IMG/VR virus record: IMGVR_UViG_3300034122_001045
DNA length: 40,950 nucleotides
Direction: 5' to 3' (one strand)
Source of the DNA: a virus
Taxonomy: Duplodnaviria; Heunggongvirae; Uroviricota; Caudoviricetes
Below, one piece after another: positions 11,298 to 36,597 of this stretch (within the stretch, counting starts at the first letter, position 1; every line of letters begins with the position of its first letter). Below the pieces are notes generated by a model, which saw only the letters and a program-made list of their open reading frames with translations, was not told the origin of the DNA and made no database searches. A program made the position numbers and the translations under genes.

Positions 11298-12044
11298 TCA
11301 CTCGATGCGTTCGATATCTTCTTCATAGCAGTTCTCTCCATACTGGATCTCAACAATCTTGAGTTCTTCAGACGAGTCGTTAATGAGTTGATGCCAGTCG
11401 GTTACGACAATGGTGACGAAGTCACCTTTCTTCAAAGGTTTTCTTATTCCATTGTGTAGGATTGCACCTGTACCATTCGTCACGTACCAAAGTTCGCTTC
11501 GATACTTATGTCTCTGAAGACTCAGTGACTTACCTGGTTCGACGACGAGCTCCTTTACCTTCGTAGAAGGACCGTCTGAGTGAAGAACACGATAGTATCC
11601 CCACTTTCTTTCAGTCTTTGGAGTCTTCCACTCAGTGAGGATCTTGCTACTCGAATTCATCTTATGAGTTCCACCGACGCCAAATACAAATGATAGTCTT
11701 TCATCCTTAATACTCATTTCCGGAATATTAATATTCGTTCTATCCCCGCCATTTGCAAAGATGATTTCATCATTAGGAAACTTTCCTAGGCACAACTTAA
11801 TTGCTTCTGATGCCCCGCCATCACTATCGTCAAAGATCATGACACTATCGACCATATGAAGGCTCTCAACGATTGCAACTCTTTCTGATAGACTCATGAA
11901 TGGCTGGCCCTTTTTACGAGTTAACCATTCGTCACTATTGACTCCAACTATTAGAATATCGCCGAGCTCTTTTGCTTCGTTAAAATATGCGATGTGACCG
12001 CTGTGAATTGGATCAAAACCGCCGGTTACAAGTACTATCTTCAT
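11298..12044 (-). CDS. Cytidylyltransferase-like nucleotidyltransferase (TagD/RfaE-II type) fused to a phosphomannose-isomerase type II-like cupin
   Basis: GGFDPIHSGH (HxGH) and LIVGVNSDEWLTRKKG in the N-terminal half; ERKWGYYRVL, KELVVEPGKSLSLQRHKYRSELWYV and IVEIQYGENCYEEDIERI in the C-terminal cupin. Confidence 0.85.
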   Translation of the reverse strand: MKIVLVTGGFDPIHSGHIAYFNEAKELGDILIVGVNSDEWLTRKKGQPFMSLSERVAIVESLHMVDSVMIFDDSDGGASEAIKLCLGKFPNDEIIFANGGDRTNINIPEMSIKDERLSFVFGVGGTHKMNSSSKILTEWKTPKTERKWGYYRVLHSDGPSTKVKELVVEPGKSLSLQRHKYRSELWYVTNGTGAILHNGIRKPLKKGDFVTIVVTDWHQLINDSSEELKIVEIQYGENCYEEDIERIE

Positions 12045-12047
12045 TTC

Positions 12048-13619
12048 TTACTCCGCATCAAAAAAGAACATTTGCCATAGACGTGAATTTTCTAAAGCAT
12101 ATCCAAAGTATTCAGACGCTGCGTGTATCAACCCAGCATCAAATATAACTAGTCTATTATAAACGTTTCCAACCACATCAACTGGCTCGTATGGAGTTCT
12201 ATCCAGAGTAGTATGACCAGAGAATGTGCTCATAATTTCTGGATGCGAGTTATGACGTATACGTGTTGCTTTATGTGCAAACATAGATGTACCTGTCTGA
12301 TATGGCGCGTCTGGTGTTAGAAACAACATTCCTGCATACTTCTGTTCGTCGCAGTGATACACGAGAGGTTCGCCTGCGTAGCAGTACTGGAATCTACCGT
12401 TCATTCCATACTGTTCCCACTTAGTAACCTTCATTCCCATGATCTTTTCGAACTCGTCTTTTAATCCGTTAAAGAGGTACTGTTTGTGAGTTCTTCTTCC
12501 AATGTATCCTCTTCCTATGCCACCCTCGTCAAATTCTCTAGTCATAGCATACTTCCTTACTTCATCCGGATTTTGATAAAAGTCATCTACGACCCACAGT
12601 CTCTTCTTATAAGGATTTATAATCGAAGAGGGGTTTAATACTGATTTTTCGAATACATCCAAGTCTTTGTAATCAAAGTTTGGTAAGAAAAAGTTTTTAA
12701 GATGCTCTCTTTCAAGTATCATTTTTGGCAACTCGCTTATTGGATACTTTTTCAAAACATGATCATTATTTCCAGAAGGTGGAACAGAACCTTCAGTAAG
12801 AGGAGTTTTGTTGAGAAAATCAATAAACGAGTCATCGCTAAATTTGATAGAACTGTTATCTTCTTTACGCATCCATTCAAACGAATCGTTGTAATGGGCA
12901 AAGACTTTTGCTTTTAAAACTCTATTTTCAACTCCGCCCATCCATGACAAGTGCCATCCAAGATCTTTAACGGGTTGTCCATTTTCTGTTATATAATGAA
13001 CAGGAAATGGGTTACCGATATTTGATCTTATATTCGAAGGATTTATTTTTTTTAGTTGACTCTTCGTAGCAAGAAACATTCCGCCAGACCAATCTACTGG
13101 ATACCCATTACTATAACAAACACGAAGGTCTGCTCTTCCTTCTAAGTATATCAACGGAACTTTAATAATAATATTTTGATTTTGCTTGCATACGTTAGAA
13201 AGATATTGAATAACTTCAGGCTTTATAATTTCGTCAGCGTCACTATGTATGAACACGGTATCATCATCAAACTTATCTAGCGCAATTAAAAGAGCATCTT
13301 TCTGTAGGCGCTCTCTTACCTTTGCTCTCTTTGATTCAATTTCGTTACGACTATCGTTTTTCATATCCGCGGTGTCGATAGGAAGAATCACTAGATCTTC
13401 GTCTTCTGGAATATCGTGCTCTATATATACGATCTTATCTTCTGGTAAATTTAGTTTTTTTGCAATCTCACTAAATTTTCTCTCGACGTTCTGTCCGCTA
13501 TGTGTTTTATTCGACTCTGCAATCACAAAATAGTCTACATAATCTTTAAGAAGATTTACTCTCAGCTCTAGTGTTTGCTCGCCATACGGAGCAAAAAATG
13601 GAAAAAAATCTACTATCAT
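12048..13619 (-). CDS. Fusion of a GT17-like glycosyltransferase (N-terminal) and a 2OG-Fe(II) oxygenase-like domain (C-terminal, DUF6445-like)
   Basis: N-terminal ELRVNLLKDYVDYFVIAESNKTHSG, HSDADEI (DxD) and GWHLSWMGG; C-terminal VVDDFYQNPDEVRKYA, YHCD (HxD), NRLVIFDAGLIH and RLWQMFFFD. Confidence 0.75.
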   Translation of the reverse strand: MIVDFFPFFAPYGEQTLELRVNLLKDYVDYFVIAESNKTHSGQNVERKFSEIAKKLNLPEDKIVYIEHDIPEDEDLVILPIDTADMKNDSRNEIESKRAKVRERLQKDALLIALDKFDDDTVFIHSDADEIIKPEVIQYLSNVCKQNQNIIIKVPLIYLEGRADLRVCYSNGYPVDWSGGMFLATKSQLKKINPSNIRSNIGNPFPVHYITENGQPVKDLGWHLSWMGGVENRVLKAKVFAHYNDSFEWMRKEDNSSIKFSDDSFIDFLNKTPLTEGSVPPSGNNDHVLKKYPISELPKMILEREHLKNFFLPNFDYKDLDVFEKSVLNPSSIINPYKKRLWVVDDFYQNPDEVRKYAMTREFDEGGIGRGYIGRRTHKQYLFNGLKDEFEKIMGMKVTKWEQYGMNGRFQYCYAGEPLVYHCDEQKYAGMLFLTPDAPYQTGTSMFAHKATRIRHNSHPEIMSTFSGHTTLDRTPYEPVDVVGNVYNRLVIFDAGLIHAASEYFGYALENSRLWQMFFFDAE

Positions 13620-13620
13620 A

Positions 13621-14637
13621 TTATAACCTTTCTAAAACAGTTAAACCGTTGTTGTTTGTTAAGAATTTTTTGAATCTCCAGTGAGGGTTAACCATGAGAA
13701 ACTCTATTATAGCTGGAAGAAGACCTTGAGAAGTACTGTATGCTTGGCCTCCCTCGTTCTTTAGACCAAAAGTATTTGTATCGTGGAACACCATGTATTT
13801 TCTAGACTTATTTCCATGAAGTGAAAGCTCTTGTTTTAACTGCTCGTATGTATGCCAAGTATCAATGAAGAGCAGGTCTGTTTCTTCGATATCAATCTTA
13901 AGAACGTCTGCTTCGATGAATGTAGCATCCTTTCCAGCTTTCTTTGCCTCGTTGATTAGATCTACTACTTTTTGATCTGTTACGATGTCATATGAAATTA
14001 GTCTCGCATCAACTCTTAAGAATGCTCGTGTACTTATTCCGGTTCTTACACCCATCTCTATTATATGATTACAATCTTTAGCTAGTTCATATAGAACTGG
14101 AAGGTGTTCGTGAATGTCACTAGGAGACGAAGCCGCGATCGCGAACTCTTTCTCTATCATGTGTTTGAAATTTTTTTGCGGCTGGTCTTCCGAATGTCTA
14201 ATAGTACCAACCGAAGGAATATACTTTTTCATTATGTCGTTCAAATTTACCATATCATATATCTCACTCTTAGTGTTCTTTTCTTTTGCTTTAAGAAAGA
14301 ACGGATGTATGTTCATAAAATCATCTTCTTTTCCAATATATTTATATATTAGCAGTAACATATAAAACGCATCTATTCTTGACGAGTCAACGTTCAATGC
14401 ATTCTTTAAAATTTTCTCTGCCATCGCAAAACTATCGCCATGTTCTATCAATGACTTTGCAGCTGACACTAGAGAATTATAGATAAGTTCTACGTCATCT
14501 GTCCTATCTGCCGCTCTTAGAAAGTATCCACAGGCAGAAGAATACTGCTGAAGGATTTCATACTCTTTTCCAAGATCGTAGTTGTACTGAGCGTTTCCTG
14601 GATCACTTATATAAGTGTTAATCTTTTCTTTAAGCAT
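13621..14637 (-). CDS. TPR-like N-terminal domain plus class I SAM-dependent methyltransferase (Methyltransf_24-like)
   Basis: Helical N-terminus YDLGKEYEILQQYSSACGYFLRAADRT; C-terminal SDIHEHLPVL, IIEMGVRTGIST, DLLFIDTWHTYEQL and MVFHDT. Confidence 0.8.
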   Translation of the reverse strand: MLKEKINTYISDPGNAQYNYDLGKEYEILQQYSSACGYFLRAADRTDDVELIYNSLVSAAKSLIEHGDSFAMAEKILKNALNVDSSRIDAFYMLLLIYKYIGKEDDFMNIHPFFLKAKEKNTKSEIYDMVNLNDIMKKYIPSVGTIRHSEDQPQKNFKHMIEKEFAIAASSPSDIHEHLPVLYELAKDCNHIIEMGVRTGISTRAFLRVDARLISYDIVTDQKVVDLINEAKKAGKDATFIEADVLKIDIEETDLLFIDTWHTYEQLKQELSLHGNKSRKYMVFHDTNTFGLKNEGGQAYSTSQGLLPAIIEFLMVNPHWRFKKFLTNNNGLTVLERL

Positions 14638-14638
14638 G

Positions 14639-16240
14639 TTACCCTCTCAAAATAAAATCATCAAACACGTCTCTAGGTATTCTTAGTATGTAAGAAGCAT
14701 TATCTTCATAGCCATAGGATATAAGTACGTCATTCTTATGGTAAGCAATACCAGATACAAACTCAATAGTACCACCCATCATAGTAAAGTCACGAGTAGA
14801 GCATACGATGTTCCAGTTTCTATCCCAGACTACGATTCGCTGAAAGTATCTTCTTCCGCTATCCTTGCCGCTATATAAGCACTCGTGAGTAACACCTATG
14901 TAGTAATCGTCATTCCAAGGAAGAATATGAGAACCGCCTCTTAAGTCTCGAGGAAACCGATAAGTCTTAGACTCTTCCAAGTGAACGGTCTCGGTCTTTA
15001 GAGTTTTAGTATCAAATGAAACTATCTGAGTTGGGTTAGACCACTTCACCCATTGGAACGGTTTATCTAGAACAGGCATCCAGTTCTTTTCACAATAGGT
15101 ATCGTCGTTTCCTGGCGCAGGAATTGAAAAACGTTCTACTTCGACTACGCCATTCTCGGTTATCTCGATCTGTGAAAGATCCATACGACCCTTACCTTCT
15201 AGTATGTGGTCCCTTCTTACTCCACATAGATACTTCTTTCCATCCCACTCTACAAACCTAGCATCTTCCAATCCAATGTAGAACCAGTTAGGATTCTCAT
15301 TGAGTCTCATGTCAACGCGATCTGCAGTTATAACATTAAGTCGATCGTCTAATCTGCACACGACGTTTTCGGATCTGATATTAATGTCGTTGTCGGAATA
15401 TAGATATTTGAGAGGACCGTCTTTTTCTGGAAACTTATTACTGTAGTAGAGTGTGTAGTTTGTTTCTCTTAAGTTTACAAAGACTCTCTCTTTATCATCA
15501 ACAAACACGGAAGCATTTGTAGTCGCAACTCCTTTAGAAACAGAATGAGGAACTACGATAGAATGCACGGATCCTCCCTTTTCCAAAACATATTTGGAAA
15601 GACTAGAACTATATACATCCTTTAAATCTGAAGAGTTGTGATAGTAGTTAGCTCTTTCGTTTTCTTTTTTGATCTGCATAAGATTCTTTAACGCATCTCT
15701 TTTTATGTGGTTCGGAACGTCCTTGATCTTTGTTAACGATAGTAATATCTCTCTTGCTTCTTCAATGAAACCGCTGTTAAAACCAGCATGCGCTTTTTGC
15801 AAAAGAAGTGAATACTTTCCTTCAAAAATAGTTTTAAATCTCAAGGGTTTTAAATTATCTATGTCTTTAATAGATAATGCGGTGCACACTAGAGAGTACG
15901 CGGTGAACCACTTCTCATCGTTCGTTTCGTTATTTTCTATGAACTTACTTAGAATTAAATATGCTTCGGGTCTATCAGGCATATGCGATATCGCAAAGTT
16001 TAGCATACCCTTTGTTGAATATCTACGTCTTCCTAGTGAAGCAGTACATGCTGCAAACCTTATTAGGCTCTCATATGACAGAAGACGGTTCTCTGTTCTT
16101 TCTGCTGTTCTTAAGTAATAAGAACCAGCCGAAGAATACTGCCCCAGATCCTCATAGTAAGATCCTAGAGTAAAACTTACTTCTGGATCACTAGGGTTAA
16201 GAGCAAACATCGTGATCAATTGTTTCATTTCTTCAAGCAT
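14639..16240 (-). CDS. TPR-like N-terminal domain plus five-bladed beta-propeller glycoside hydrolase/phosphorylase-like domain
   Basis: The start is likely the ATG at 16240 (AAGGG SD-like sequence, 1 nt after the upstream stop), although the ORF track starts at 16255. TPR-like LGSYYEDLGQYSSAGSYYLRTAERT; propeller motifs GLEDARFVEW, CEKNWMP, RGGS, THE and IEFVSG. Confidence 0.65.
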   Translation of the reverse strand: MLEEMKQLITMFALNPSDPEVSFTLGSYYEDLGQYSSAGSYYLRTAERTENRLLSYESLIRFAACTASLGRRRYSTKGMLNFAISHMPDRPEAYLILSKFIENNETNDEKWFTAYSLVCTALSIKDIDNLKPLRFKTIFEGKYSLLLQKAHAGFNSGFIEEAREILLSLTKIKDVPNHIKRDALKNLMQIKKENERANYYHNSSDLKDVYSSSLSKYVLEKGGSVHSIVVPHSVSKGVATTNASVFVDDKERVFVNLRETNYTLYYSNKFPEKDGPLKYLYSDNDINIRSENVVCRLDDRLNVITADRVDMRLNENPNWFYIGLEDARFVEWDGKKYLCGVRRDHILEGKGRMDLSQIEITENGVVEVERFSIPAPGNDDTYCEKNWMPVLDKPFQWVKWSNPTQIVSFDTKTLKTETVHLEESKTYRFPRDLRGGSHILPWNDDYYIGVTHECLYSGKDSGRRYFQRIVVWDRNWNIVCSTRDFTMMGGTIEFVSGIAYHKNDVLISYGYEDNASYILRIPRDVFDDFILRG

Positions 16241-16241
16241 A

Positions 16242-17306
16242 TTAACCCTTTGCATAATTTAAAAACTTTTCTACGGTTGCATATGGAGTTTCTAATACGT
16301 ATGCAACGTTGTCTTGAAAACCAAACGTGATGAGGATCTTTCCTTTATGGTGACACATTCCGCACGTAAACTCAGTATGTCCTCCCATAATGGTAAAGTC
16401 ATCAGAGAAACCTACTATGTCCCAGTTCCTATCCCATACTATAAAGCGATGCCGATATACTCCGTCCTTTACTCGCTTCTCTCCTTTAAACAGATCCACC
16501 TCGTGAGTAAGAGCAATATAGTGATCACCGAACGGAATGACTTGCGATCCTCCACGAGGTTCTGTAAGACCCTTAGGATTTCCATTAAACAGACGCTTCT
16601 CGCTAAGAAAGGCTGTTTCTGCTTTAGATTTTTCTATATCTACAAGAACTACTTCTGTTGGGTTGCACCACTTTATGTACGTATAGTTTTGATCTAGAAC
16701 TGGCATCCAATTCTTTTCGCAATAAGACTTGTCTTCACCAGGTGCACCGATACGAGTTCTTGACACTTCTATGACTTCGTTTTCCAGAACTTCTATCTCT
16801 GACAGTTCCATACGACCCTGTCCGTTTGTAGTCGTATCTCTACGAACTCCAGTCATATAGAGCTTTCCGCCCCATTCCACGAGTCTTGCGTCTTCAAGTC
16901 CTACGAAGTCCCAGATTGGTTCTTTGTCCAATCTTGAAGTATCTACGTGATTGAATCTAGTAATGTTATAGTTATCATCAAGTTCGCAGTAGTAGTTTTC
17001 AGTGCGAAGCTTCATATCGTCTTCGGGGTGAAGATATGTTAGAGGCCCCCAAGGATGGACGAATTTCTTTTTCTCTGAATGATAGAATAGATAGTTGGTG
17101 CATCTTACATTAACAATCAATTTATCATTATGAACCAAGATGGATGGGTTCATGAGACCAGTTCCACCGGTGAGTTCGACTGGAACGATAAGCGGATGAA
17201 TGCTGCCGCCGTCCGTTAATGCTTGTTGTGCTAGAGTGATAGAAGTTTCATATCTGTATGTTTGCTCTACTTGATATGAATCTTTTATGTGTTCAAAAAA
17301 TGACAT
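16242..17306 (-). CDS. Five-bladed beta-propeller glycoside hydrolase/phosphorylase-like protein (GH130/GH43 clan-like), paralog of the neighbouring gene
   Basis: NPSI, VNVRCTNY, GLEDARLVEWGGK, GVRRD, GRMELSEIE, CEKNWMPVLD, RGGSQ, THE and TEFTCG align by eye with the neighbouring paralog. Confidence 0.65.
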   Translation of the reverse strand: MSFFEHIKDSYQVEQTYRYETSITLAQQALTDGGSIHPLIVPVELTGGTGLMNPSILVHNDKLIVNVRCTNYLFYHSEKKKFVHPWGPLTYLHPEDDMKLRTENYYCELDDNYNITRFNHVDTSRLDKEPIWDFVGLEDARLVEWGGKLYMTGVRRDTTTNGQGRMELSEIEVLENEVIEVSRTRIGAPGEDKSYCEKNWMPVLDQNYTYIKWCNPTEVVLVDIEKSKAETAFLSEKRLFNGNPKGLTEPRGGSQVIPFGDHYIALTHEVDLFKGEKRVKDGVYRHRFIVWDRNWDIVGFSDDFTIMGGHTEFTCGMCHHKGKILITFGFQDNVAYVLETPYATVEKFLNYAKG

Positions 17307-17349: not shown

Positions 17350-17357
17350 TATTTATC
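17350..17357 (-). promoter_or_regulatory. Near-consensus late promoter GATAAATA heading enzyme cassette A
   Basis: GATAAATA on the minus strand in the 72-nt gap upstream of the 17306 start; 7/8 match to TATAAATA. Confidence 0.5.
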
Positions 17358-17378: not shown

Positions 17379-17648
17379 TTAACCCAATGCGATTGCGTAT
17401 GCAACTGCGTCTGCCGTCGTTACAGGTGTATCCCAAAAGACACTGTTTGCAGAAGAGTGTAATACTTGTCCAAAAGATCCAGGTGAATTTGTGCTGTCAT
17501 ATATGGCTCCAGTTATTCTAACATTGCCTTCCACGTGCAGTTTTTGAGATGGGATTAACGTCCCAATGCCTATATTTCCTGCGCCATCAGCGGTTATTCC
17601 GCCAATACTAACATTAACTCCTACTAACGTCCTTAACGATACTGGCAT
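17379..17648 (-). CDS. Small fibre-associated structural protein (89 aa)
   Basis: GNIGIGTLIPSQKLHVEGNVRITG fibre-type repeat and C-terminal AVAYAIALG; its ATG overlaps the collagen gene stop (TAATG). Confidence 0.65.
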   Translation of the reverse strand: MPVSLRTLVGVNVSIGGITADGAGNIGIGTLIPSQKLHVEGNVRITGAIYDSTNSPGSFGQVLHSSANSVFWDTPVTTADAVAYAIALG

Positions 17649-20600
17649 TAGTTATCTCTCTTTATGTTTTCGATATCGGCTTTTAGTCTCTTAACTGCTT
17701 CTATTAAGATCGCAATAAGTGGAGTATATGCAACCGTCTTCCAACCGTTTCCGTTTGTTTTCACGAGTTCTGGCATTATCTTTTCAAGTTCCTGCGCAAT
17801 CACACCGTAACTCTTAGTTTTGTTATCTTTCCAATCGAAACTATATGTATTTATTCTTTCTAGAATATCAAAGCTGTTATCAATAGACATAAAGTTTTCT
17901 TTAAACGTTTCGTCTGAAAGCGAGTTGAAGTTAGTCGCCGAGAGATCACCGGTCGAAGGATTGAAATACAGTTTAGTTGTAGAAACTTCTGCCGTTTGAT
18001 TCGATCCAGCCGCTGCTACGAATACTGGGTAATGAGTCGCATTAGTGGTGGTATCGTCAGACGCGTTAATCGTAGTAGACGGTCCTGATGTACCTTGGAT
18101 ACCTTGAACACCCTGTGAACCTGTTCCGCCAATACCTTGAGAGCCAACCCCTTGAATACCTTGAATGCCTTGAGTACCCTGAGTACCCTGAGTACCCTGA
18201 AGACCTTGTGTACCCCGAGTACCCTGAAGACCCTGTGTCCCTTGAGTTCCCTGAAGACCTTGAGTACCCTGAGTACCCTGAAGACCTTGTGTACCCTGAG
18301 TACCCTGAAGACCCTGCGTTCCTTGAGTTCCTTGAGTTCCCTGAAGACCTTGAGATCCAGTCGTACCTTGGGTTCCTTGAGTACCTTGAATACCTTGAAT
18401 ACCTTGGAAACCTTGAGTTCCAGTTGTACCTTGTGTTCCCTGAGTTCCTTGAATACCTTGGAAACCTTGTCTACCTTGTAGGCCTTGAGATCCAGTCGTA
18501 CCTTGGGTTCCTTGAGTACCTTGAATACCTTGAATACCTTGGAGACCTTGGGATCCAGTTGTACCCTGAGTTCCTTGGGTACCTTGAATACCTTGGAAAC
18601 CTTGTCTACCTTGTAGGCCTTGAGTACCCTGCGTGCCCTGAGTCCCTTGTGTACCTTGTGTTCCCTGAGTTCCTTGAATACCTTGGAAACCTTGAGTTCC
18701 AGTTGTACCTTGAATACCTTGAATACCCTGCGGGCCATATGCATACAATGCAGCTGTAAAATATGTGCCGTTTGCACTGCTATTAATGTTCTGAGAAGTT
18801 GTATTTCCAGTAAATGCAGTAACTTCGACATAATCTGTTGTACCGTTAAAATATGCAATAGTGGAAAATGTCATTGCATAACCAGAACCAGTCATGATTT
18901 GATCTTGACTAATTGCTAGCTGCGTAGTTCCATTTTTTCTAAGTTGGATATTGTTTTGATTATTAGTTACTGCGCCAGCATCCCACCAAACCTGAGCAGT
19001 AATATTGTAATAACCGGCAACAGTTGGTTGGAACCTATTTGAAGCGAACCAATTCTGTGGATCAAAATCATCTGAAAATGTAACAACTGTATCGGCGCCG
19101 TTGGTGACAGTTTGTGCTATGTCTTTAACTGCACGAACTACATAACTACCGGGTGTAAGCAAACCGCCATCAAATCCTTGTACACCCTGTCTACCCTGTA
19201 GACCTTGAGTTCCCTGAGGACCCTGTAGACCTTGAGTTCCCTGAGTACCCTGTAGACCTTGAGTACCTTGAGTTCCCTGCGTTCCTTGTGTTCCTTGAAG
19301 ACCTTGAGTACCTTGAGTTCCCTGAAGACCTTGAGTGCCTTGAGTTCCCTGCGTTCCTTGTGTTCCTTGAAGACCTTGAGTGCCTTGAGTTCCCTGAAGA
19401 CCTTGAGTGCCTTGAGTTCCCTGAAGACCTTGAGTACCTTGTCTACCTTGGAGTCCTTGAGGACCCTGTACACCTTGAGTGCCTTGAGTTCCCTGAAGAC
19501 CTTGAGTACCTTGTCTACCTTGGAGTCCTTGAGGACCCTGTACACCTTGAATACCTTGAACACCAATTGCAGTAAATATTTCCCAAGTAGAGCCATCATA
19601 AGCAAATTCTACAGAGAAACCTTTCACATCCATTGCAACGTCGTCTGAAACTCCTTCGATTGTGCTTCCGTTTCTTCCAACCGTAAGGTTGGTGGCCGCC
19701 CAGTCGGCTGGATCTGCAATAATTACAAAATCGCCTGTAGAAGGAGCAGCCGGAAGATTAATTGTGAATGTTCCCCCAGAAGTGTCTGCTAGAATTCTGT
19801 CTCCGGAAACTGCGGTGTATGTAGTTGTTTTTACTAACCAATTATTAAAACCACCATCCAGACCTTGTAATCCTTGAACACCAGTTCCTTGAAGACCCTG
19901 TGTCCCTTGAGTGCCCTGAGTTCCTTGAAGACCCTGTGTCCCTTGAGTGCCCTGAGTTCCTTGAAGACCTTGGGTTCCTTGAGTACCCTGAGTACCCTGA
20001 AGACCTTGGGTTCCTTGTGTTCCTTGAGTACCCTGAGTACCCTGAAGACCTTGGGTTCCTTGTGTTCCTTGAGTTCCTTGAGTACCCTGAAGCCCTTGGG
20101 TTCCCTGAGTTCCTTGCGTACCTTGAGTTCCCTGAGTTCCTTGCGTACCTTGTGTGCCCTGAAGACCTTGAGTGCCCTGAGTTCCTTGTATACCTTGAGT
20201 TCCTTGAGTTCCTTGAGTACCCTGAAGACCCTGTGTTCCCTGAGTTCCCTGAGTTCCTTGAGTACCTTGAGTTCCTTGAGTACCTTGAGTTCCTTGAGTA
20301 CCCTGAAGACCCTGCTCGCCTTGAAGACCTTGAGTGCCTTGTGTACCCTGAGTACCCTGAGTACCTTGAGTACCCTGAAGACCCTGAGTACCTTGAGTAC
20401 CTTGAGTACCTTGAGTACCCTGAAGACCCTGTGTTCCCTGAGTTCCCTGAGTACCCTGAAGACCCTGTGTTCCCTGAAGACCCTGTGTTCCCTGAGTACC
20501 TTGAGTACCCTGAGTACCTTGAGTACCCTGAAGACCCTGTGTTCCCTGAAGACCCTGTGTTCCCTGAGTACCTTGAGTACCCTGAGTACCTTGAGTACCC

Positions 20601-27808: not shown

Positions 27809-28408
27809 TCATTCCAAGTTCATTTCTTTTTTGAACTTATTTAAAACTGCGTCGCTTTCGTGTATCCAAGTCACGATTGCTTCGCGTGTTCCAGATTCTA
27901 CGATCCTAGCTTCATGGTAAAACACGGCTGGAAATATTATGAAGCTTCCGATTTCTTTTGAAAGCTTTGCTATTTCGTTATTATTGTTATCAAACACGAC
28001 TAACTCACCACCACCATAATCATTTTCTTCTGATAGATTAATCGAGCACGTGAGAATTCTTTTTATGTTAGTATCATACAAGGTGTCTTTGTGTTTTTTA
28101 AAGAAGTTACCTTTTTCGTATCTTGCATACTGTATCTCAGCAATATTTGTTAAGTCTATGTAAGAGCATATCGAAGAGTACTCGCTTATTATCGCGGATT
28201 GAAGTATGCTAAATGTGTTAGGATACTTATCGGCTTTTGGAAAGAAGATCGTAGAATTGCGAATACTTGTATCTAGTCTACCCTTGCCAGAACTGGAAAG
28301 CTGTGCATTAAAGCGATCTTCTTTATAAATATTTGCGTCCTTTGACAGTTTTCTTACTTCGTTTCGCGTAAGTTTACCGCTTGCAATATATTTAGAAAAG
28401 TTATCCAT
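27809..28408 (-). CDS. 2OG-Fe(II) oxygenase (prolyl 4-hydroxylase/PKHD-like)
   Basis: RYEKGNFFKKHKD (HxD), RILTCSINLS, YGGGEL, IIFPAVFYHEA (distal His) and GTREAIVTW (2OG-binding Arg). Confidence 0.88.
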   Translation of the reverse strand: MDNFSKYIASGKLTRNEVRKLSKDANIYKEDRFNAQLSSSGKGRLDTSIRNSTIFFPKADKYPNTFSILQSAIISEYSSICSYIDLTNIAEIQYARYEKGNFFKKHKDTLYDTNIKRILTCSINLSEENDYGGGELVVFDNNNNEIAKLSKEIGSFIIFPAVFYHEARIVESGTREAIVTWIHESDAVLNKFKKEMNLE

Positions 28409-29102: not shown

Positions 29103-30087
29103 AGTCTCCAAGGTCGAACTTTGTCCCTTTCATCTTATTAATGTCTACTAGGTCGTTGTTCTTCCACACAAGTACTTCGTTATCCTCATACAAGAAATCA
29201 CAGTCCTTGCAAAAAGAAACCTCGTCGAATCTTTTTTCGGTATGCATCTGTCGCAACCACTTATATCTATCACCATTCCATACTTCTTCGACAGACTTAT
29301 TCTCTAACGATCCTAAATCTGCTTCTGCATCTCTTCCAAGCACTTGACAGCACGGTGCTACAGATAACTTGGTACCGTTGCTTCCACCAGCACGTATAGT
29401 GATATCGGGTGAGAATGGACGCCCACAGGTTCTCTTCTCTCCCTTTCTCTTATATGTTGGATCGTATACTCCCGACCAGTTATGCATCTTCCATATCTCT
29501 GCGTGCGATCCTACTACGTCAATAAAGTTCTTTCTGTATTCAGAGACTTCGTATTCTTCCTGATCGTTATCGAGTATAAGGTGATAGGATGCTACGATGC
29601 AATTAGAATTCCTTTCCTTGATGTAGTTCTTCATGTCAATTGCGTTTTGCTTAACCGTATCAAAAGCGTATCGATTCATCCACTTTCTATACATCGCTTG
29701 ATTGTAGCCAATGATCGAGAACCTGGCAAGATCTAACCCAGCATCGACACATTCCTTCATGAAGTCGCCTCGAAGGTTATAACCGTTTGTGTATATGAAA
29801 GCTTTCGCTCCGTACTTTTTTACGATAGCAATGTATTCCGGAAGATTACGATTTAGAGTCGGCTCGCCAGATCCTTCAAGGTTCACAACATTAAGACCTG
29901 CTTCTGCACACTCGGCAACTGCTCTCTCAAAATCTTCGAGAGACATCTTCTTGAGCCAGTCCTTACCTCGTCCACCATGCGTACCGTCAGCATTCGTCTG
30001 AGGACACATCTGACAGGTATAGTTGCAGCCCCCGTTGATCTCTATGACGGCTCTGTCTATATTGAGCGGTATTGAATAATCATTCAT
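29095..30087 (-). CDS. Radical SAM enzyme with a SPASM/twitch-type C-terminal domain
   Basis: CNYTCQMC (CxxxCxxC), GSGEPTL and IYTNG; C-terminal CGRPF...PCC...LGSL...EEVWNG...CKDC. Confidence 0.92.
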   Translation of the reverse strand: MNDYSIPLNIDRAVIEINGGCNYTCQMCPQTNADGTHGGRGKDWLKKMSLEDFERAVAECAEAGLNVVNLEGSGEPTLNRNLPEYIAIVKKYGAKAFIYTNGYNLRGDFMKECVDAGLDLARFSIIGYNQAMYRKWMNRYAFDTVKQNAIDMKNYIKERNSNCIVASYHLILDNDQEEYEVSEYRKNFIDVVGSHAEIWKMHNWSGVYDPTYKRKGEKRTCGRPFSPDITIRAGGSNGTKLSVAPCCQVLGRDAEADLGSLENKSVEEVWNGDRYKWLRQMHTEKRFDEVSFCKDCDFLYEDNEVLVWKNNDLVDINKMKGTKFDLGDFK

Positions 30088-30097: not shown

Positions 30098-30751
30098 TTA
30101 TGGTATCATTACAAAATTATGTTTCTTATATTCGTCTTTGTCGTTTGAATAGTGATCTATCGTTCCGCCATACTTCATTGACATTACCTGGTCTGAAGCT
30201 GGAATAAAGAGATCATGTTTAACATTGACTAACTCTTTCATTCTATTATTTTGAAAGGCAAACTTTTCTATATGAGAGTACGGTCCATTACTTATCTCTA
30301 CTCCATACATATGCTCTATTAGATCCTTTGCGAACCAGGGCTGAATGATATAGCTACCCATTGCAGCGCGATCGTAGAATGTAATTCCGTAAAGATTGTT
30401 ACACCAAAGTTTTGAAGGATCTTGTAATATGCAGTCGTGTTCGAGTATTAGAATAGGTTTGTTCGTAAAGACTGATTCTTGCCAGAGACGAAAATGACTG
30501 TAGAAGCATGCACGTTCTGTTTCGGTTATCTCAACCTTCAATCCTCTTACTACATACTTAGGAGAAGTAGAGTATTTTGCGAACTTTAGGTCTTTCTGTC
30601 TGTGTAACGTCTTTGGTGTTATCGCGTTAAAGCGATTGACTGTGATCCCTACACTTTCCCAACTCGGCTTGCAATAATCGTGATAGTACTCAGACCTTTC
30701 GTCGTTCTCTATCACTATCATAAAACATGATATGTTTTTAAATATATCCAT
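30098..30751 (-). CDS. Glycosyltransferase family 25-like protein
   Basis: RFNAITP, ETERACFYSHFRLW and PILILEHD match the GT25 pattern (E.GC..SH..LW, ILEDD). Confidence 0.75.
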   Translation of the reverse strand: MDIFKNISCFMIVIENDERSEYYHDYCKPSWESVGITVNRFNAITPKTLHRQKDLKFAKYSTSPKYVVRGLKVEITETERACFYSHFRLWQESVFTNKPILILEHDCILQDPSKLWCNNLYGITFYDRAAMGSYIIQPWFAKDLIEHMYGVEISNGPYSHIEKFAFQNNRMKELVNVKHDLFIPASDQVMSMKYGGTIDHYSNDKDEYKKHNFVMIP

Positions 30752-31457
30752 TTGATTTAAGATCTTTAAGTGGTCCTTGAGATTCTATAGCATGCTTATC
30801 GTAATCGCTATCTGTAATGTACTCCACCATATTAACCCACATGTCTCTATTGTGTATAACAAAGGCGATCGACAATCTGGCTTTCTTAGTTGAAGCTGCA
30901 TGCCAGTACACTCTATTCGGTTCCTTGACTTCTGAAGGATAGTATCCGCACTTAACGTTCCAACCTGGCTTGTCATACATATACACTACTTCGTCTTTTT
31001 CTTTATCGTAGTACTTAAAGTGCCCATCGCCGTCCTGGCTATATGAGAACAATACATTATATCCTGGAGCGTTACCGTTATGATGCCACCCGATGTAACC
31101 GTCGTCAGGATACAACATACATAGCGCGTTTTGTGCAGACCCAACGGTGTTCTGAAGACGCATTAACTTTTTTGCCACTAATTCGTGAAAGAAACTACTT
31201 TTATCAATGTCAGTACTTATGGTTCCTATACCTAACGCAGCTCTAGGATACGCAAAATCTTTTAATGGGTACTTTAATGCTTTTCTAAAATATGCATCGT
31301 CTACAGAATGTAAATCTGTAATTAGATTATCTTTTTTTTCTTTACGTCTAGCTTCTTCAGATAGTCTTTTTATATTTTCTTCTTTAAAGACATCTTCAGT
31401 TATACCAGATAGAATTTTCGTCAGTCTTTGACTTTTTAGGCAAACTTCTTTCATCAT
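30738..31457 (-). CDS. Cupin/2OG-Fe(II) oxygenase-like protein
   Basis: YPDDGYIGWHHN, GWNVKCGY and YWHAASTKKARLSIAF (His...His...Arg pattern; lacks the canonical HxD). Confidence 0.6.
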   Translation of the reverse strand: MMKEVCLKSQRLTKILSGITEDVFKEENIKRLSEEARRKEKKDNLITDLHSVDDAYFRKALKYPLKDFAYPRAALGIGTISTDIDKSSFFHELVAKKLMRLQNTVGSAQNALCMLYPDDGYIGWHHNGNAPGYNVLFSYSQDGDGHFKYYDKEKDEVVYMYDKPGWNVKCGYYPSEVKEPNRVYWHAASTKKARLSIAFVIHNRDMWVNMVEYITDSDYDKHAIESQGPLKDLKSNGYI

Positions 31458-32223
31458 TCAATCCCTTCTGTAGTCTTTCATAAAAATGTGTCATATCCTT
31501 AGATCTCATGGATACCTTATCTATCTGATATACGATCGGACGTTTTCCATCGTATAGATCCTTTCCATCGTGTATCGTAGCGTTGTACACCTTTGGGCCT
31601 ATCTTTATATTTAAGTTGTTAAATCGTTCAAACTCTTTCCATCTGCCGGAAGTTAGTCTCCAAAGAGTAAACATATCAAATATTTTCCAATCGGGCCAAG
31701 CGAAGTCGTATGTCCACGGTTCGGTTCTTTGTTTTAGATATTCATCGAACCACGTCTGCATAAAATCTATCGTTAGGTCTGTCTTTCTGTAACCGCAGAC
31801 CGCACCATGATACTTTACTGGTATCTTTTGTTCCTTATCAAAGAAAGACCACTTATAGTTACCGGTTGTATACCAGTAACTCTCTGTGAAGAACATGTCG
31901 CAGTCTTTAATCTCGTCGAATACGTTCTTTATCTTACTGCTTACGATCTGCGAGTCTACGTCGTTGTAGAATGTATTCTCGTATGGAGTCCTTGCCATAC
32001 ACCACATCTTTGCTCGCTCGTGAACCGGAATGCCGGTGATCACGTTATTAAAAATCTCTCTTGCTCTATCGTCAACCCAAGCTTCGTGAGTAAAGAGAGT
32101 TATGTGAGCGTTTCTATGCATTGTTCGAAGAGACTCTCCGGACAGCATGGCGAGTTCATAGAATAGTTTTTCTTTTGAAGCAACGTATATGAAACCATTT
32201 TCACTTTTTTCTACATCATTCAT
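31396..32223 (-). CDS. GT-A fold glycosyltransferase-like protein (GT8-like)
   Basis: GFIYVAS, AHITLFT, AKMWCMARTPYENTFYNDVD (DxD), HGAVCGY and DMFTLW; overlaps the downstream gene by 62 nt. Confidence 0.6.
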   Translation of the reverse strand: MNDVEKSENGFIYVASKEKLFYELAMLSGESLRTMHRNAHITLFTHEAWVDDRAREIFNNVITGIPVHERAKMWCMARTPYENTFYNDVDSQIVSSKIKNVFDEIKDCDMFFTESYWYTTGNYKWSFFDKEQKIPVKYHGAVCGYRKTDLTIDFMQTWFDEYLKQRTEPWTYDFAWPDWKIFDMFTLWRLTSGRWKEFERFNNLNIKIGPKVYNATIHDGKDLYDGKRPIVYQIDKVSMRSKDMTHFYERLQKGLNDERSLPKKSKTDENSIWYN

Positions 32224-32237: not shown

Positions 32238-32729
32238 TCAAGTTGTTTCGGCTTCTTCCTCGAGATCATCTAGGTAGTCTAGATAATCGTTGTAGTCCAT
32301 ACCCTGATTTTCCATAAACTTTCTCGTGATATCTGTAACAATAAAGTCTAATACAGCTTTCGTTGGCGCTCTTCGTATTGCAGATTTTATATCTGTTCCT
32401 GCGTCACGAATAAATGGAAGTTCTAGGACTTTTGTTTTTTCGTTGAAAAGAGTCTTAAGCTCTATGACTTTCTCTTGAGTCCTTCTCTTTTCGTCGGCGT
32501 GCTTTTTATGATTTCTCTGTTCCGCTTCGATGCGGTTTCTTTTCTGACGCATTTCTTCGATATCAAATTCATCAACGATTCGATCCCAATACTTATTCAC
32601 GCCTTTTCTTTTATTATTCGGAACAGTAAGTTCAGCAACGCTTTCGATTCCATCTTCACGTATTATCTTAAATCTTACTCTCGTCTTTTCCAAGTCTACA
32701 TATTCAGGGTTTAGTATTTTTTCAACCAT
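32238..32729 (-). CDS. Hypothetical protein with a coiled-coil middle (possible assembly chaperone of the Tyr-repeat protein)
   Basis: 163 aa, highly charged helical centre, 3 nt downstream of the repeat-protein stop. The function is inferred from position only. Confidence 0.55.
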   Translation of the reverse strand: MVEKILNPEYVDLEKTRVRFKIIREDGIESVAELTVPNNKRKGVNKYWDRIVDEFDIEEMRQKRNRIEAEQRNHKKHADEKRRTQEKVIELKTLFNEKTKVLELPFIRDAGTDIKSAIRRAPTKAVLDFIVTDITRKFMENQGMDYNDYLDYLDDLEEEAETT

Positions 32730-32732: not shown

Positions 32733-35357
32733 TTAAAGAATCCTTCTCCAAAGAGTTTTCGTAGAGATTACTGAGCTATTATTATTTATTATCGATCCTG
32801 CATATGTACTCTGATAGTCTACAGCTCCAGCATAATCGTTTGGTACTGTAGAGTCATAATTTACCGTATCCGGGACGGCTGCAATGTATGTTGTAGTATA
32901 TGCAGGACCATCATAAGAGCTAGTATAGCTGGATGGTAAAGGACTAGAGAAGACCCCACCTGTGACTCCTATGTAATCGGTAATATATGACAGGGTCCCA
33001 ACATAAAACACTGGAGCAAATCCTACAAATTGTCCTAGATATGTAGTTTCACTTATATACGACACCGGTCCAATACCAACGTAGTCTCCTAGATAAGCAA
33101 CTGTGTTGTCATAGTTTGCCGCCGTCACTCCTAAGTAATCTATATCGTATGTTAACACTCCAACGTAGCTTGCGGGAGTCACACCGGCGTATTCACTCTC
33201 GTATGTAACAGATAATATATAACTGCCAGCATCTGGAGTTAATCCAGCGTAGTTGCCAAGATAGGCTATAACCGTATCATAAACCGCTCCATCTGGGTTT
33301 GTTCCGAGATAATCTGCAGCAATGAGCGCAGTATATAATACTTCCGGTATACCAATATATCCGGCTCCGTCTGGAGTAGTTCCTGGACCGATATATGTAG
33401 GGCCGTCAAGAGGGCCCAAGTAACTAACATCAGGCCCGGCACCGAGATAGTTAACTGGTGCACCAGATCCAAGATAATTTATTGCGTTGTCTGACTCGTA
33501 GTTTATGGCATCCGGAGTCGCAGGACCTACGTAGTTAATTGATGGTATGGAAGTATAATCTACGAAGTTTAGTTTTTGCGACCCTTGATAATCTTGGTTT
33601 CCTGGGCCTAAGTAGTTGGTATCCGCGCCAGGGCCGAGGTAGCTTGTAGCTGCACCAGGGCCGAGGTAGTTTGTAGCATTCGCCGGGCCAGGGCCAACGT
33701 ATGATAATGTTTTGGTTCTCACGTACGTGATGCCCGGCCCTGGCCCGAGATAGTTTATAGAATTCGCTGCGCCTGGCCCAACATAATTTATAGCATTCGC
33801 CGTGCCCGGGCCAAGATAGTTTGTGACGTTAGCAACTAACGAAGTGTAGTTCGCAGCAGGACCTCCTGGGCCAAGGTAGTTAACAGTTGTAATGTCTCCT
33901 AGATAGAAAGGTTCTGCGCTAGGACCTAAGTATAGAGGAAATAACGTATAGTTTGTAAAGTTTGCCGGGCCAGGACCAAGATAGTTTACGTTTGGGACTC
34001 CGGATTGAGATGCATAAGGAGCACCGTCCGTATCCGTAGATACATATAGAACTCCATCCAAAGGCCCAATATATGTGACTGGCGCAGAGGGTCCTAGATA
34101 TGAAGCCGGAGTCGTTCCTGCATAGTTAATAGAGTCCGCCAACGGACCAAGATAGTTAACTGTCACGAATCGAGTACTATCATAGGTAACCTCTGCAGGT
34201 CCAACGTATGTGACTGGACCAATAAACCCAGTCACATACGTGATAGGAGTGATACCAACGTACGTAGCTGGTCCTACATAATCTGCTACGTAAGTAGCCG
34301 GTGTAACGCCGACATAAGAAATAGGACCGATGTAATCGCCGACATAGTTCGTTGGCGCAACTCCATCGTATACAATCCCGCCAAGATAGTCTCCATCGTA
34401 TGTTGCAAAACCCGGACCTAGATAGTTTATACCACTAGGCCCTTCAAAGGTGGTAGTGTATGCCGCCGGTGCAACACCGTCATAACCAACAATAACAGAA
34501 GAAACGTAATCAGTGTCGTATGTTCCTATGTAATCTGTGTCATACGGTACGTCCGAACCGCCAAGATAGCTTATAGGAATAATACCGGTATAATTCACAT
34601 CAGAAGTATATATCGGGCCTACATAATCTTGCGCAGATATCGTAGGTCTTGTGTCAAGGATAGTACCCATTTCAGCCCAAGTCCCTGGCGTTGGCGCAGC
34701 TAGCTGAAATGCATAGTAACCTATCTGTGTTGTTATAATTCTTTCTCTTACTTTTTCGACTAGCTGTTCTATTTCGGCCTGAGTCATGATCTGAATGGTT
34801 CCGCCAGATACATGTTTAAGAGGACTGTGTGTAAGAGTGGTAGTACCCGATATCTTTTTAAATAACGTGGTTACAGTAGTATTTGCTGTGTCTTGAACGT
34901 TGTTAATGCTTCCGATGGATACCCAAGTACCTCCAGCCGGCGCGGCGCTTGTTAACACGTAACCACCTGGGCCATCTCCAATAACCATATATTGTATAAT
35001 AGCATCGGCAAGATCGTTGAGCTCTGTATTGTTCGCGATCTTAATATCAGTTCCGTTCCAATGTAATGGTGGATTCGTGACAGATCCGTAGTTACTCGTT
35101 CTATCCTGATAAAGAGTGTATGTTGTAGAAAGAAGTGTAACGTCTCCAGTTCCAATAGCTCCCTGATATCGTGTATCAGTGAAATCACCTATTGCTACAT
35201 AAGCGGTGTTTGCACCTTGTGCGTTGTATATGTTACCGGGCCCGTCAACAGAAGCAAACTTTTCAAGAACAACTTCAGCGATCGCTTCAAACTCAGAGTC
35301 GTTTATGATCTGTAATATGCCACTGCCCTTATAGGTAAGGACATTTGGTCTTGCCAT
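32733..35357 (-). CDS. Virion fibre-like protein (874 aa) with a central Tyr-x-Gly repeat region
   Basis: About 245-aa globular N-terminus with internally duplicated G.Y.(L/F)...AP..GTW segments, about 50 YxG motifs counted by hand, and a short C-terminal cap KTLWRRIL. Confidence 0.75.
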   Translation of the reverse strand: MARPNVLTYKGSGILQIINDSEFEAIAEVVLEKFASVDGPGNIYNAQGANTAYVAIGDFTDTRYQGAIGTGDVTLLSTTYTLYQDRTSNYGSVTNPPLHWNGTDIKIANNTELNDLADAIIQYMVIGDGPGGYVLTSAAPAGGTWVSIGSINNVQDTANTTVTTLFKKISGTTTLTHSPLKHVSGGTIQIMTQAEIEQLVEKVRERIITTQIGYYAFQLAAPTPGTWAEMGTILDTRPTISAQDYVGPIYTSDVNYTGIIPISYLGGSDVPYDTDYIGTYDTDYVSSVIVGYDGVAPAAYTTTFEGPSGINYLGPGFATYDGDYLGGIVYDGVAPTNYVGDYIGPISYVGVTPATYVADYVGPATYVGITPITYVTGFIGPVTYVGPAEVTYDSTRFVTVNYLGPLADSINYAGTTPASYLGPSAPVTYIGPLDGVLYVSTDTDGAPYASQSGVPNVNYLGPGPANFTNYTLFPLYLGPSAEPFYLGDITTVNYLGPGGPAANYTSLVANVTNYLGPGTANAINYVGPGAANSINYLGPGPGITYVRTKTLSYVGPGPANATNYLGPGAATSYLGPGADTNYLGPGNQDYQGSQKLNFVDYTSIPSINYVGPATPDAINYESDNAINYLGSGAPVNYLGAGPDVSYLGPLDGPTYIGPGTTPDGAGYIGIPEVLYTALIAADYLGTNPDGAVYDTVIAYLGNYAGLTPDAGSYILSVTYESEYAGVTPASYVGVLTYDIDYLGVTAANYDNTVAYLGDYVGIGPVSYISETTYLGQFVGFAPVFYVGTLSYITDYIGVTGGVFSSPLPSSYTSSYDGPAYTTTYIAAVPDTVNYDSTVPNDYAGAVDYQSTYAGSIINNNSSVISTKTLWRRIL
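32790..34630 (-). repeat. Degenerate YxG / NYLGPG / YxxxY peptide repeats
   Basis: Recurrent plus-strand gggccaagatagtt, gggccgaggtag and ccaacgta motifs; protein spacing about 8-13 aa. Confidence 0.9.
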
Positions 35358-35526: not shown

Positions 35527-35558
35527 CTTCGCTCTCCTTTAGAACTATTAGCTGTATC

Positions 35559-35566
35559 TATTTATC
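35559..35566 (-). promoter_or_regulatory. Near-consensus late promoter GATAAATA heading the Tyr-repeat operon
   Basis: GATAAATA on the minus strand in the 45-nt gap upstream of the 55-aa ORF. Confidence 0.55.
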
Positions 35567-35571
35567 ACAAC

Positions 35572-36597
35572 TTATGTCTTTAGCCATCTTTCGTTCTCTA
35601 GAGTCCACTTTACTACTTCTGCAATTCTTTCGCGGACTGAAGTGGCTGGTTCCCATCCAAGACTCTTCATCTTGTTTCCGTCTAGGGCATAGCGAAGATC
35701 GTGGCCTGGGCGACTCGAGTGAAAGTCGACAAACTCGTAGTTGAGTTCCTTACCTTGCGCGTCTGCGATGATCCTTGCAAGTTCGTAGTTATCGATCTCT
35801 TCTGCGCCGACGATGTTAAACTTGGGGCACTTAGCTCCACCCCATTCTTCCTTTAGATCAAAATTCCCATTTAGTAAGAATAAAACTGCATCTGCTACAT
35901 CTTCTGCGTGGATGTAGTGACGTGATCCCGGGATCGTCTTTGTTCTATCGCTATGGATTGTAATCTTCTCGCCATCACGAGCTTTCTTGATGCACATTGG
36001 TATGTACTTCTCCGGGTGTTGTCTCTGACCAAAGACGTTCATAGTATGAGTGATATAGATCGGCAAGCCGTAGGTATTCTCATACGCAACAGCAAGTTCT
36101 TCGCCGCCTGCTTTTGATGCGCTATAAGGATTCGTAGAGTTATAGCGATCGTTTTCACCATACTTAATTCCATCCGGCGCAGGACCAAAGACTTCATCGG
36201 TACTGAAGTAGATGAACCTCTTAAGATTGCTCTTTTGCGCTCTTGCAAATTCGAGAATGTTACACGTTCCGACAACATTATCAAGAACGAACTCCATCGG
36301 ATAGTCGATAGAACGATCAACATGTGACCCTGCTGCAAGGTGAGCGATGTAGTCTACGGATCCTACTTCTGAACGAACGAGTGGGTTCATGTCGGCCTTC
36401 AGGTCGTGAAATACCACGCTTACTCTCTTACGAGTTTCGGCGTCGAACTCCTGTAGTGAGTCGTGGAGGCGATTCAAGTTTCCACTGTAGTCCAATCTAT
36501 CTAGAGTAACTACCTCCCAATCCGTCTCTTTGAGCACTTTACATACGAGGTGGTGGGCAATAAAACCGGCTCCGCCAGTGATTAATATTCTTTTCAT
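35572..36597 (-). CDS. rmlB: dTDP-glucose 4,6-dehydratase-like NAD-dependent epimerase/dehydratase
   Basis: The likely start is the ATG at 36597 (AAGGA SD); ITGGAGFIA, HLAAGSHVDRSI, STDEVFG, YSASK, NVFGQRQHPEK and RPGHDLRYALD. Confidence 0.9.
   Translation of the reverse strand: MKRILITGGAGFIAHHLVCKVLKETDWEVVTLDRLDYSGNLNRLHDSLQEFDAETRKRVSVVFHDLKADMNPLVRSEVGSVDYIAHLAAGSHVDRSIDYPMEFVLDNVVGTCNILEFARAQKSNLKRFIYFSTDEVFGPAPDGIKYGENDRYNSTNPYSASKAGGEELAVAYENTYGLPIYITHTMNVFGQRQHPEKYIPMCIKKARDGEKITIHSDRTKTIPGSRHYIHAEDVADAVLFLLNGNFDLKEEWGGAKCPKFNIVGAEEIDNYELARIIADAQGKELNYEFVDFHSSRPGHDLRYALDGNKMKSLGWEPATSVRERIAEVVKWTLENERWLKT

Follow-up and report, generated by a model that had tools for sequence, protein, structure and literature searches.

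An uncultured phage carries two genes for long repeat proteins, a collagen-like fibre and a YxG-repeat protein, each followed by enzyme genes in an arrangement that is conserved far beyond this phage. Both lie in a window of 40,950 nucleotides, the whole stretch of DNA analysed here (IMG/VR record IMGVR_UViG_3300034122_001045). The best reading of the sequence, which we hold with slightly better than even confidence, is that the phage tailors its own fibres with the core enzymes of these two gene sets.

The low-coordinate end of the window (positions 1-5167) encodes part of the large terminase, the small terminase, gp15, a gp9/10-like protein, the neck protein gp14 and its 247-aa neighbour; the terminase, gp15 and gp14 genes identify a T4-like myovirus. 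The window is a fibre-rich variable island adjoining the neck gene gp14 of an uncultured T4-like freshwater myovirus, and the exact stretch is present in 19 lake-water metagenome runs. This general layout, with fibres and glycan genes near gp14, has already been published; enzymes acting on the fibres are absent from those accounts. New here are the two conserved fibre-enzyme cores.

The initial annotation had described a cassette A after the collagen gene and a cassette B after the YxG gene, proposing each repeat protein as a candidate substrate of its cassette. All its open reading frames (ORFs), their order, sizes and coordinates were reproduced, as were nearly all its domain calls; the weak ones concern A3 (Methyltransf_24), B1, B7 and RmlB. 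Two proteins without a family match were resolved by modelling: A1, similar to glycoside hydrolase family 130 (GH130) and glycosyltransferase (GT) families GT108 and GT91, and B2, with a 2-oxoglutarate (2OG) oxygenase fold. Co-occurrence of repeat protein and cassette in relatives held for YxG-B1-B2 and for fibre, A1 and a gene with a tetratricopeptide repeat (TPR) module; radical S-adenosylmethionine (SAM), GT25-like and A5-like genes are also found away from repeat genes. Each cassette thus splits into a core and a periphery.

The YxG gene (32733..35357, minus strand) encodes 874 residues with 53 Y-x-G motifs and 10% tyrosine, between a conserved N-terminal region of ~245 aa and a conserved ..LWRRI end. 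Among relatives the length of this repeat protein is hypervariable, from about 320 to 2091 aa. The protein has no family match, and an ESM Atlas search with its N-terminal domain returned no informative neighbour; its position, promoter motif and hypervariable repeats suggest that it is part of the virion. Next on the same strand come s163 (32238..32729), a 163-aa protein of no known family, then B1 (31396..32223) and B2 (30738..31457). The s163 gene stands between the YxG gene and B1 in 10/10 close relatives where it was detected.

We found 207 relatives of B2 in IMG/VR. Lineages of B2 were counted as non-redundant clusters at 90% identity. A YxG-family gene lies upstream of B2 in 42 of 44 lineages (one of which, L201, was added by hand) and B1 is adjacent in 39/44; the YxG-B2 pairing persists down to ~31% B2 identity. 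A radical SAM, GT25, GT2 or prolyl 4-hydroxylase (P4H) gene is also present in only 9/44. It follows that the YxG gene, the small gene, B1 and B2 form the ancient unit, to which this lineage has added the other cassette-B enzymes.

B1 is a GT-A type glycosyltransferase-like protein with a conserved D-x-D; its GT8/GT77-like assignment rests on weak evidence. The model of B2 (predicted local distance difference test, pLDDT, 91) is a double-stranded beta-helix that matches the structures of PHD2, bacterial P4H, AlkB and YxbC. Its invariant residues are H125-x-N127, H186 and R194-x-S/T196; both histidines and the latter, a 2OG-binding RxS-type motif, were found in all 42 sequences examined. B2 is probably an enzyme, though not a textbook one. 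Its profile retrieved nothing useful from Protein Data Bank (PDB) sequences, a Pfam scan of all 11 family members gave no family, and a large protein search with the profile yielded 133 hypothetical proteins with neither Pfam domains nor fusions. Two ESM Atlas clusters share the B2 fold, with template modelling (TM) scores of 0.64-0.66. The viral one carries a 60-residue Phage_tail_APC family in 95% of its members, and the actinobacterial one is labelled Nif11-like precursor; the fusions were confirmed in neither, and the viral cluster is a lead only.

The collagen-like fibre COL2092 (17648..23926, minus; 2092 aa) has 18 Pfam collagen stretches and a Peptidase_S74 domain. G-X-Y runs interrupted by globular domains make up 1215 of its 2092 residues, and the S74 chaperone domain stands at the end. 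Among its triplets are 219 GTQ and 82 GLQ: threonine occupies position X in 229 of ~405 triplets and glutamine position Y in 381. Proline occurs in the triplets 7 times, at position X, and lysine is not one of the ten commonest residues at X or at Y. The repeat region at 18100-22800 shows many alternative joints and raised depth in one DNA run from a lake, a pattern that fits repeat-length variants or cross-mapping from collagen genes of other phages.

After an 89-aa fibre-like small protein (17379..17648), the minus strand encodes A1 (16242..17306), a five-bladed propeller of the beta-mannoside phosphorylase or mannosyltransferase fold. The A1 model (pLDDT 77) matches GH130 phosphorylases, Leishmania MPT transferases and fungal Bmt enzymes in Foldseek (E 5.6e-10 to 1e-8, TM 0.5-0.63). 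The family has an invariant E138-D139-x-R141, which may correspond to the catalytic motif of GH130. A2 (14639..16255, minus) joins a TPR module, residues 1-210, to a paralogue of A1, the two propellers being 42-44% identical. The same module, confirmed at E 1e-7, precedes a class I methyltransferase-like domain in A3 (13621..14637, minus; Methyltransf_24, below the Pfam cut-off). Folding the module with a trimer of the fibre S74 C-terminal domain scored 0.00, a result that counts neither for nor against binding.

For the A1/A2 family we found 156 relatives, and 80 of their loci were fetched. In 60/80 loci and in 19 of the 22 usable A1 lineages, a homologue of a collagen or S74-type fibre precedes the gene on its own strand; with the fibre proteins of the window as queries, no match was found downstream or on the other strand in the 80 loci. 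In at least 20 loci without T4-like neck or terminase genes in their flanks, only 16-76 bp separate the A1-like gene from the end of a collagen ORF, 800 to 2500 residues long, that precedes it. T4-like relatives have instead a giant non-collagen fibre with an S74 end, 1-1.4 kb upstream of the A1-like gene. In nearly all loci inspected, the A1-like gene is succeeded by one that encodes the TPR module. The 15 A1-family matches in a collection of bacterial and archaeal genomes (L180-L194) are all in contigs of metagenome-assembled genomes or bins from scattered taxa. Since several have terminase and neck genes as well, they probably come from phages and were binned with cellular genomes, and they provide no bacterial test.

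Two further genes complete cassette A on the minus strand. A4 (12048..13619) combines a GT17 glycosyltransferase with a DUF6445 oxygenase-like domain (HxD...H), and this C-terminal domain recurs fused to TPR in relatives. A5 (11298..12044) has a cytidylyltransferase-like nucleotidyltransferase domain resembling RfaE domain II and a cupin of the mannose-6-phosphate isomerase type. The characterised animal GT17 enzyme adds N-acetylglucosamine to beta-mannose. Chemically, the enzymes of cassette A form a coherent set: a sugar-1-phosphate nucleotidyltransferase with a cupin of the mannose-isomerase type, a pair of propellers of the beta-mannoside type, a GT17 and a methyltransferase.

Both cores are preceded by late-type promoter motifs. 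One GATAAATA site (35559..35566, minus) heads the gene string that runs from s54 and the YxG gene to the radical SAM gene, and another (17350..17357, minus) lies 44 nt before A1. The s54 gene, a 54-aa ORF (35360-35524, minus) overlooked in the initial annotation, directly follows the motif and ends 2 nt before the YxG gene; its end, ..GTVVWGSV, is similar to that of larger ORFs (..GTIVWGG) which precede the YxG gene in a related locus (L003). GATAAATA differs by one mismatch from the TATAAATA of T4, and both sites fit the cyanophage late motif NATAAATA (PMC2984593), bearing out the near-consensus late promoters noted earlier. On the minus strand of the window NATAAATA occurs 12 times, 6 of them inside the few intergenic gaps. 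It also stands 35-81 nt before the A1-like start in 9/9 T4-like relatives tested, against a background of 0.26 per kb.

These motifs argue for expression together with the structural genes. Late expression of the cassettes, as first proposed, is predicted from these motifs, which are conserved in relatives. One freshwater metatranscriptome gave short low-depth contigs exactly matching A4 and A2, which DNA carry-over could also explain; it gave no cover over the part of cassette B up to 31297, which proves nothing. Overlaps or gaps of 1-14 nt between genes of the window suggest co-translation.

A hydropathy scan found no membrane-like segment in any of the twelve cassette enzymes; only an unrelated TctA has them. 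Priming transferase, flippase, polymerase and ligase were not recognised among the window genes scanned. Any action on lipopolysaccharide (LPS) would need the host to provide all such machinery. Fusion to TPR is typical where an enzyme keeps hold of a protein substrate, as in OGT, in collagen P4H with its peptide-binding domain and in the TMTC O-mannosyltransferases; polysaccharide export also involves TPR proteins. By analogy, the fusions in A2 and A3 point to a protein substrate, although this is suggestive only.

From gene content, folds, conserved pairing, motifs and the lack of membrane segments we infer the following substrates, sugars and order of steps. Late in infection, newly made fibre proteins would be modified in the cytoplasm by the soluble enzymes, with activated sugars supplied by the RmlB-like enzyme and A5. 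A1 and A2 with A4 could build a mannose-type, possibly methylated, O-glycan on the threonine-rich collagen, the TPR modules holding the protein substrate. On the YxG repeats, B2 would hydroxylate and B1 glycosylate, after which GT25 and GT2 may extend the glycan.

A wider proposal is less probable by comparison. YxG(-Pro) repeat proteins might be a widespread, undescribed class of phage fibre, each matured by its own B1/B2 pair, while S74 fibres might be beta-mannosylated by TPR-tethered GH130-like enzymes. For the YxG proteins this would mean that a virion component is O-glycosylated in the cytoplasm of the bacterium, through hydroxylation or on tyrosine, by a system undescribed for any phage.

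The remaining genes of cassette B are less closely tied to the YxG gene. B3 (30098..30751, minus) is a GT25 glycosyltransferase, and follows or overlaps the YxG gene directly in five related loci. B4 (29095..30087, minus) is a radical SAM/SPASM enzyme. B5, a GT2 glycosyltransferase of 231 aa without TPR (28407..29102, plus), is inverted and is the exception among the listed ORFs of a window whose genes are almost all on the minus strand. B6 (27809..28408, minus) is a 2OG-Fe(II) oxygenase (2OG-FeII_Oxy_3), P4H/PKHD-like, with HxD...H. B7 (27127..27798, minus) is sulfotransferase-like, with a weak Sulfotransfer_2 match (E 5e-4) and the motifs HIPRNGG (PSB-like) and RNPLDRFLS (PB-like). A perfect TATAAATA (28324-28331, plus), overlooked in the first reading, lies 75 nt before the start of B5, and a GATAAATA (28522-28529, minus) lies 115 nt before that of B6. 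Each motif is inside the coding sequence of the other gene, and this divergent pair may be transcribed from face-to-face late promoters.

We fetched 80 of the loci of the 356 relatives of B4 in IMG/VR, most of which stand alongside GT25-like genes without a repeat gene. In the closest ~15 the order is YxG protein, (GT25), s163, B1, B2, radical SAM, inverted GT2, P4H-like gene and then the gp14 neighbourhood. Some 66 others, at 57-63% identity, have no YxG or collagen ORF within 10 kb; there, several GT25-like genes and an epimerase accompany the radical SAM gene, and further neighbours are presumably rnh- and nrd-like replication genes, as named from their N-termini. The tie of the radical SAM enzyme to a repeat gene, assumed in the initial annotation, accordingly does not hold: at ~60% identity the enzyme sits with GT25-like genes and no repeat protein is in reach. 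Judging by these neighbourhoods, the radical SAM, GT25, sulfotransferase-like and nucleotidyltransferase-cupin genes look like a movable glycan toolkit, also found away from repeat genes.

The 872-aa product of one related locus (L108:9989-12607) unites three parts, a propeller of the GH130-like kind, a methyltransferase of the FkbM type and a radical SAM/SPASM domain; a collagen-like ORF of 2421 aa lies two small ORFs upstream of it. Its radical SAM domain is 23% identical to B4 over about 110 residues, and the fusion places that domain in glycan chemistry rather than in peptide cross-linking. We rejected B4 as a dedicated tyrosine-crosslinking peptide maturase, since it mostly occurs away from any repeat gene and L108 joins a related domain to glycan enzymes. 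Sulfotransferase-like N-termini were seen by eye in L026 and L007; in the latter (L007:11581-12950) the protein concerned has 320 aa and follows the radical SAM gene and one more gene. The same locus has a P-loop protein, by eye maybe an adenylylsulfate (APS) kinase, which would supply the sulfate donor that the window lacks.

Of the reading proposed in the initial annotation, the part that stands is that core enzymes, soluble and two of them with a TPR module, are genetically tied to fibre genes and preceded by late-type motifs; its likeness to a peptide-maturation cluster and its radical SAM link do not. Several observations weigh against fibre tailoring. Adjacency is partly expected by chance in a fibre-rich island, to some degree. 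A1 reaches GH130 only at the level of fold, its Pfam GH130 match (E 0.0044) being below the cut-off, and its profile found no match among PDB sequences. B2 has H125-x-N127...H186, with asparagine in place of the carboxylate ligand of the canonical HxD/E...H iron triad. No fibre gene is in reach in 2/44 B2 lineages and in 2/8 deep A1 lineages, and an orthologue of the collagen fibre, 71% identical in a globular domain, stands in loci (L172, L173) where cassette A is missing for at least 7 kb around and the flanks encode other sugar enzymes. To these come the repeat-free, distant radical SAM/GT25 clusters, before which late motifs show no clear pattern, and an A5-like gene in a non-fibre glycan cluster (L037). 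GT2, GT8 and GT25 are typical LPS or lipooligosaccharide enzyme families and, with the RfaE-like and RmlB-like genes, belong to classic LPS pathways. Lastly, host O-chain modification is the published reading of such islands (PMC7029224, PMC12801897).

On that published reading the enzymes would alter the LPS O-chain or capsule of the infected cell, which could block superinfection or stop progeny from sticking to debris, and proximity to fibres would reflect the island's tolerance of cargo. Equivalent genes are interpreted in this way in both papers, and the radical SAM/GT25 clusters of relatives do lie outside the structural region. We nonetheless regard it as unlikely: neither membrane segments nor lipid-carrier machinery was found, late-type motifs are conserved before the A1-like gene while superinfection exclusion would be expected early, and the TPR fusions are left unexplained. 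Cargo tolerance hardly accounts for the tight, strand-consistent pairing of B1/B2 with one fibre family and of A1/TPR with S74-type fibres, a pairing that persists at 30-50% identity and where T4-like neck genes are absent from the locus.

We give still less credence to a role of A1, the TPR proteins, s163, B1 and B2 as fibre assembly factors or virion-borne parts, such as chaperones or a fibre-attached glycan-cleaving enzyme. In T4-like phages chaperones or adhesins are often encoded after fibre genes, and the GH130 fold includes hydrolases as well as phosphorylases. The viral B2-like cluster with Phage_tail_APC, a lead only, would agree with such a role, as would the 2OG oxygenase detected in a cyanophage virion preparation (PMC12801897). 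The A1 and B2 families, however, have many invariant charged, metal- or cosubstrate-type residues, as in enzymes; fusions in relatives join A1-like domains to FkbM methyltransferase and radical SAM domains, which fits biosynthesis better than a structural role; and nucleotide-sugar enzymes stand in the same gene string. Least probable of all, in our view, is an insertion hotspot in which glycan and fibre genes accumulate independently and some enzymes serve DNA or small-molecule modification. The island is described as hypervariable and non-syntenic (PMC7029224), ~21 kb is extra here between the P4H-like gene and the neck genes compared with the nearest cassette-B relatives, and the position of cassette A relative to g07_1718 varies among the closest relatives; yet order and strand of both cores are kept across dozens of lineages, and the short overlaps and gaps suggest co-translation. 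The GT families here also differ from those that glucosylate DNA in T-even phages. DNA glycosylation was rejected as a candidate for its wrong GT families and wrong predicted timing.

Other genes of the window complete the setting. Between the cassettes lies a fibre module on the minus strand (23932..26734) with h117 (tail-fibre-assembly-like), h102, tf539 (a tail fibre protein) and h155, and with TATAAATA and AATAAATA in its gaps. An RmlB-like NDP-hexose (nucleoside diphosphate hexose) 4,6-dehydratase gene (35572..36738, minus) has its domain from residue ~50, the true start probably being near 36597; the best match of its product is dTDP-glucose 4,6-dehydratase, below the equivalog cut-off. 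A further collagen/S74 fibre gene (40010-40948) is truncated by the end of the window; the region 36656-39997 (minus), between it and the RmlB-like gene, holds the TctA transporter gene and two genes (275 and 390 aa) without known family. Between gp14 and gp15 (2009-4411, minus) an inserted gene encodes 800 aa, with an N-terminus like that of T4 gp9/10; its counterpart in the closest relatives has only 507 aa. Among cultured phage records (INPHARED) we found no close relative: a megablast of 20 kb gave no match, nor did tblastn with the YxG protein and GT25, while the radical SAM enzyme matched one phage, C48C1 (Kyanoviridae), among unannotated genes.

Ever since their discovery, glycan genes in T4-like phages of the sea and of fresh water have been classed as host-acting "LPS genes". 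If fibre tailoring is correct, a concealed level of protein chemistry would underlie how these very abundant phages recognise hosts, keep their virions stable and escape grazers or enzymes, and predictions of host range that use only the fibre sequence would overlook it. With the two conserved pairs, fibre modification is directly testable without culturing the phage.

Among known systems, the island itself is closest to the "host recognition cluster" (HRC) of pelagimyophages and cyanomyophages (PMC7029224), a large, hypervariable and non-syntenic region ending at gp14 and interpreted as a device that modifies the host O-chain, a view shared by a recent cyanomyovirus paper (PMC12801897). As there, tail fibres, collagen-repeat proteins, glycosyltransferases, rfaE-like genes and radical SAM cassettes occur here in a variable island that runs upstream of gp14 in a T4-like genome; VrlC, the other HRC boundary, falls outside the window. 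The two conserved fibre-enzyme cores are not described there. The freshwater group in PMC7029224 is reported without LPS, radical SAM and curli genes, those of the CsgF/CsgG type being a pelagimyophage feature, whereas this phage comes from lake water.

The layout had also been likened to a cluster for a ribosomally synthesized and post-translationally modified peptide (RiPP), an analogy we abandon. The "substrates" of 874 and 2092 aa have conserved globular ends, one with an S74 domain, and no leader, so that there is no leader-core precursor. No RiPP recognition element (RRE) or PqqD-like family was found in the cassette-B genes scanned with Pfam and NCBIfam, B4 having only Radical_SAM and SPASM, and the would-be maturase is mostly unlinked to a "precursor". 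Phage seroconversion of the Gtr/Oac type involves a membrane-embedded transferase or flippase, of which the hydropathy scan gave no sign in any cassette protein.

Cytoplasmic hydroxyproline glycosylation of Skp1 proceeds by a P4H and then GT2 and GT8/GT77 enzymes, and glycogenin glucosylates tyrosine. A soluble 2OG hydroxylase and a retaining GT-A enzyme of the GT8/GT77 type directed at one protein provide a working analogy for B2 and B1 on Y-x-G-P, although neither belongs to these systems at the sequence level and B2 has HxN instead of HxD. In mycobacteriophages, Freeman et al. reportedly showed by mass spectrometry in 2023 that C-terminal extensions of capsid and tail-tube proteins are glycosylated. 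There too, phage-encoded soluble glycosyltransferases adjoin structural genes; the targets presumed for the present phage are fibres, and its hosts are probably Gram-negative.

Mimivirus likewise encodes collagen-like proteins together with its own hydroxylase, glycosyltransferase and nucleotide-sugar synthesis enzymes for collagen and fibril modification (L230, R699; PMC9546862, PMC9614988). There, lysines are hydroxylated and then receive glucose, whereas the collagen triplets here have no lysine and 7 prolines. Collagen chemistry of the animal or mimivirus type, whether P4H-type or lysyl-hydroxylase-type, for this reason does not fit, and a P4H acting on collagen was rejected for too few prolines. 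GT25, moreover, travels here with the YxG gene and not with the collagen gene.

Collagen of the Bacillus exosporium is glycosylated on BclA. In C. difficile the corresponding exosporium system is BclA3 with SgtA (PMC7157674). Here as there, a threonine-rich collagen-like surface fibre, with its 219 GTQ triplets, stands beside soluble dedicated sugar-adding enzymes, and an RmlB-like gene is near, only one of the four Rml enzymes being in the window. Threonine is at position X here (GTQ) and at position Y there (GPT). No SgtA-like transferase adjoins the collagen gene, the only GT2 being B5 in cassette B; the enzymes beside it are of the GH130-like, GT17 and TPR-methyltransferase families, with TPR fused to GH130-like and methyltransferase domains. 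BclA3/SgtA, the fibril glycosylation of giant viruses and the virion glycosylation of mycobacteriophages are the nearest functional analogues of the proposed fibre tailoring, which uses enzyme families other than theirs.

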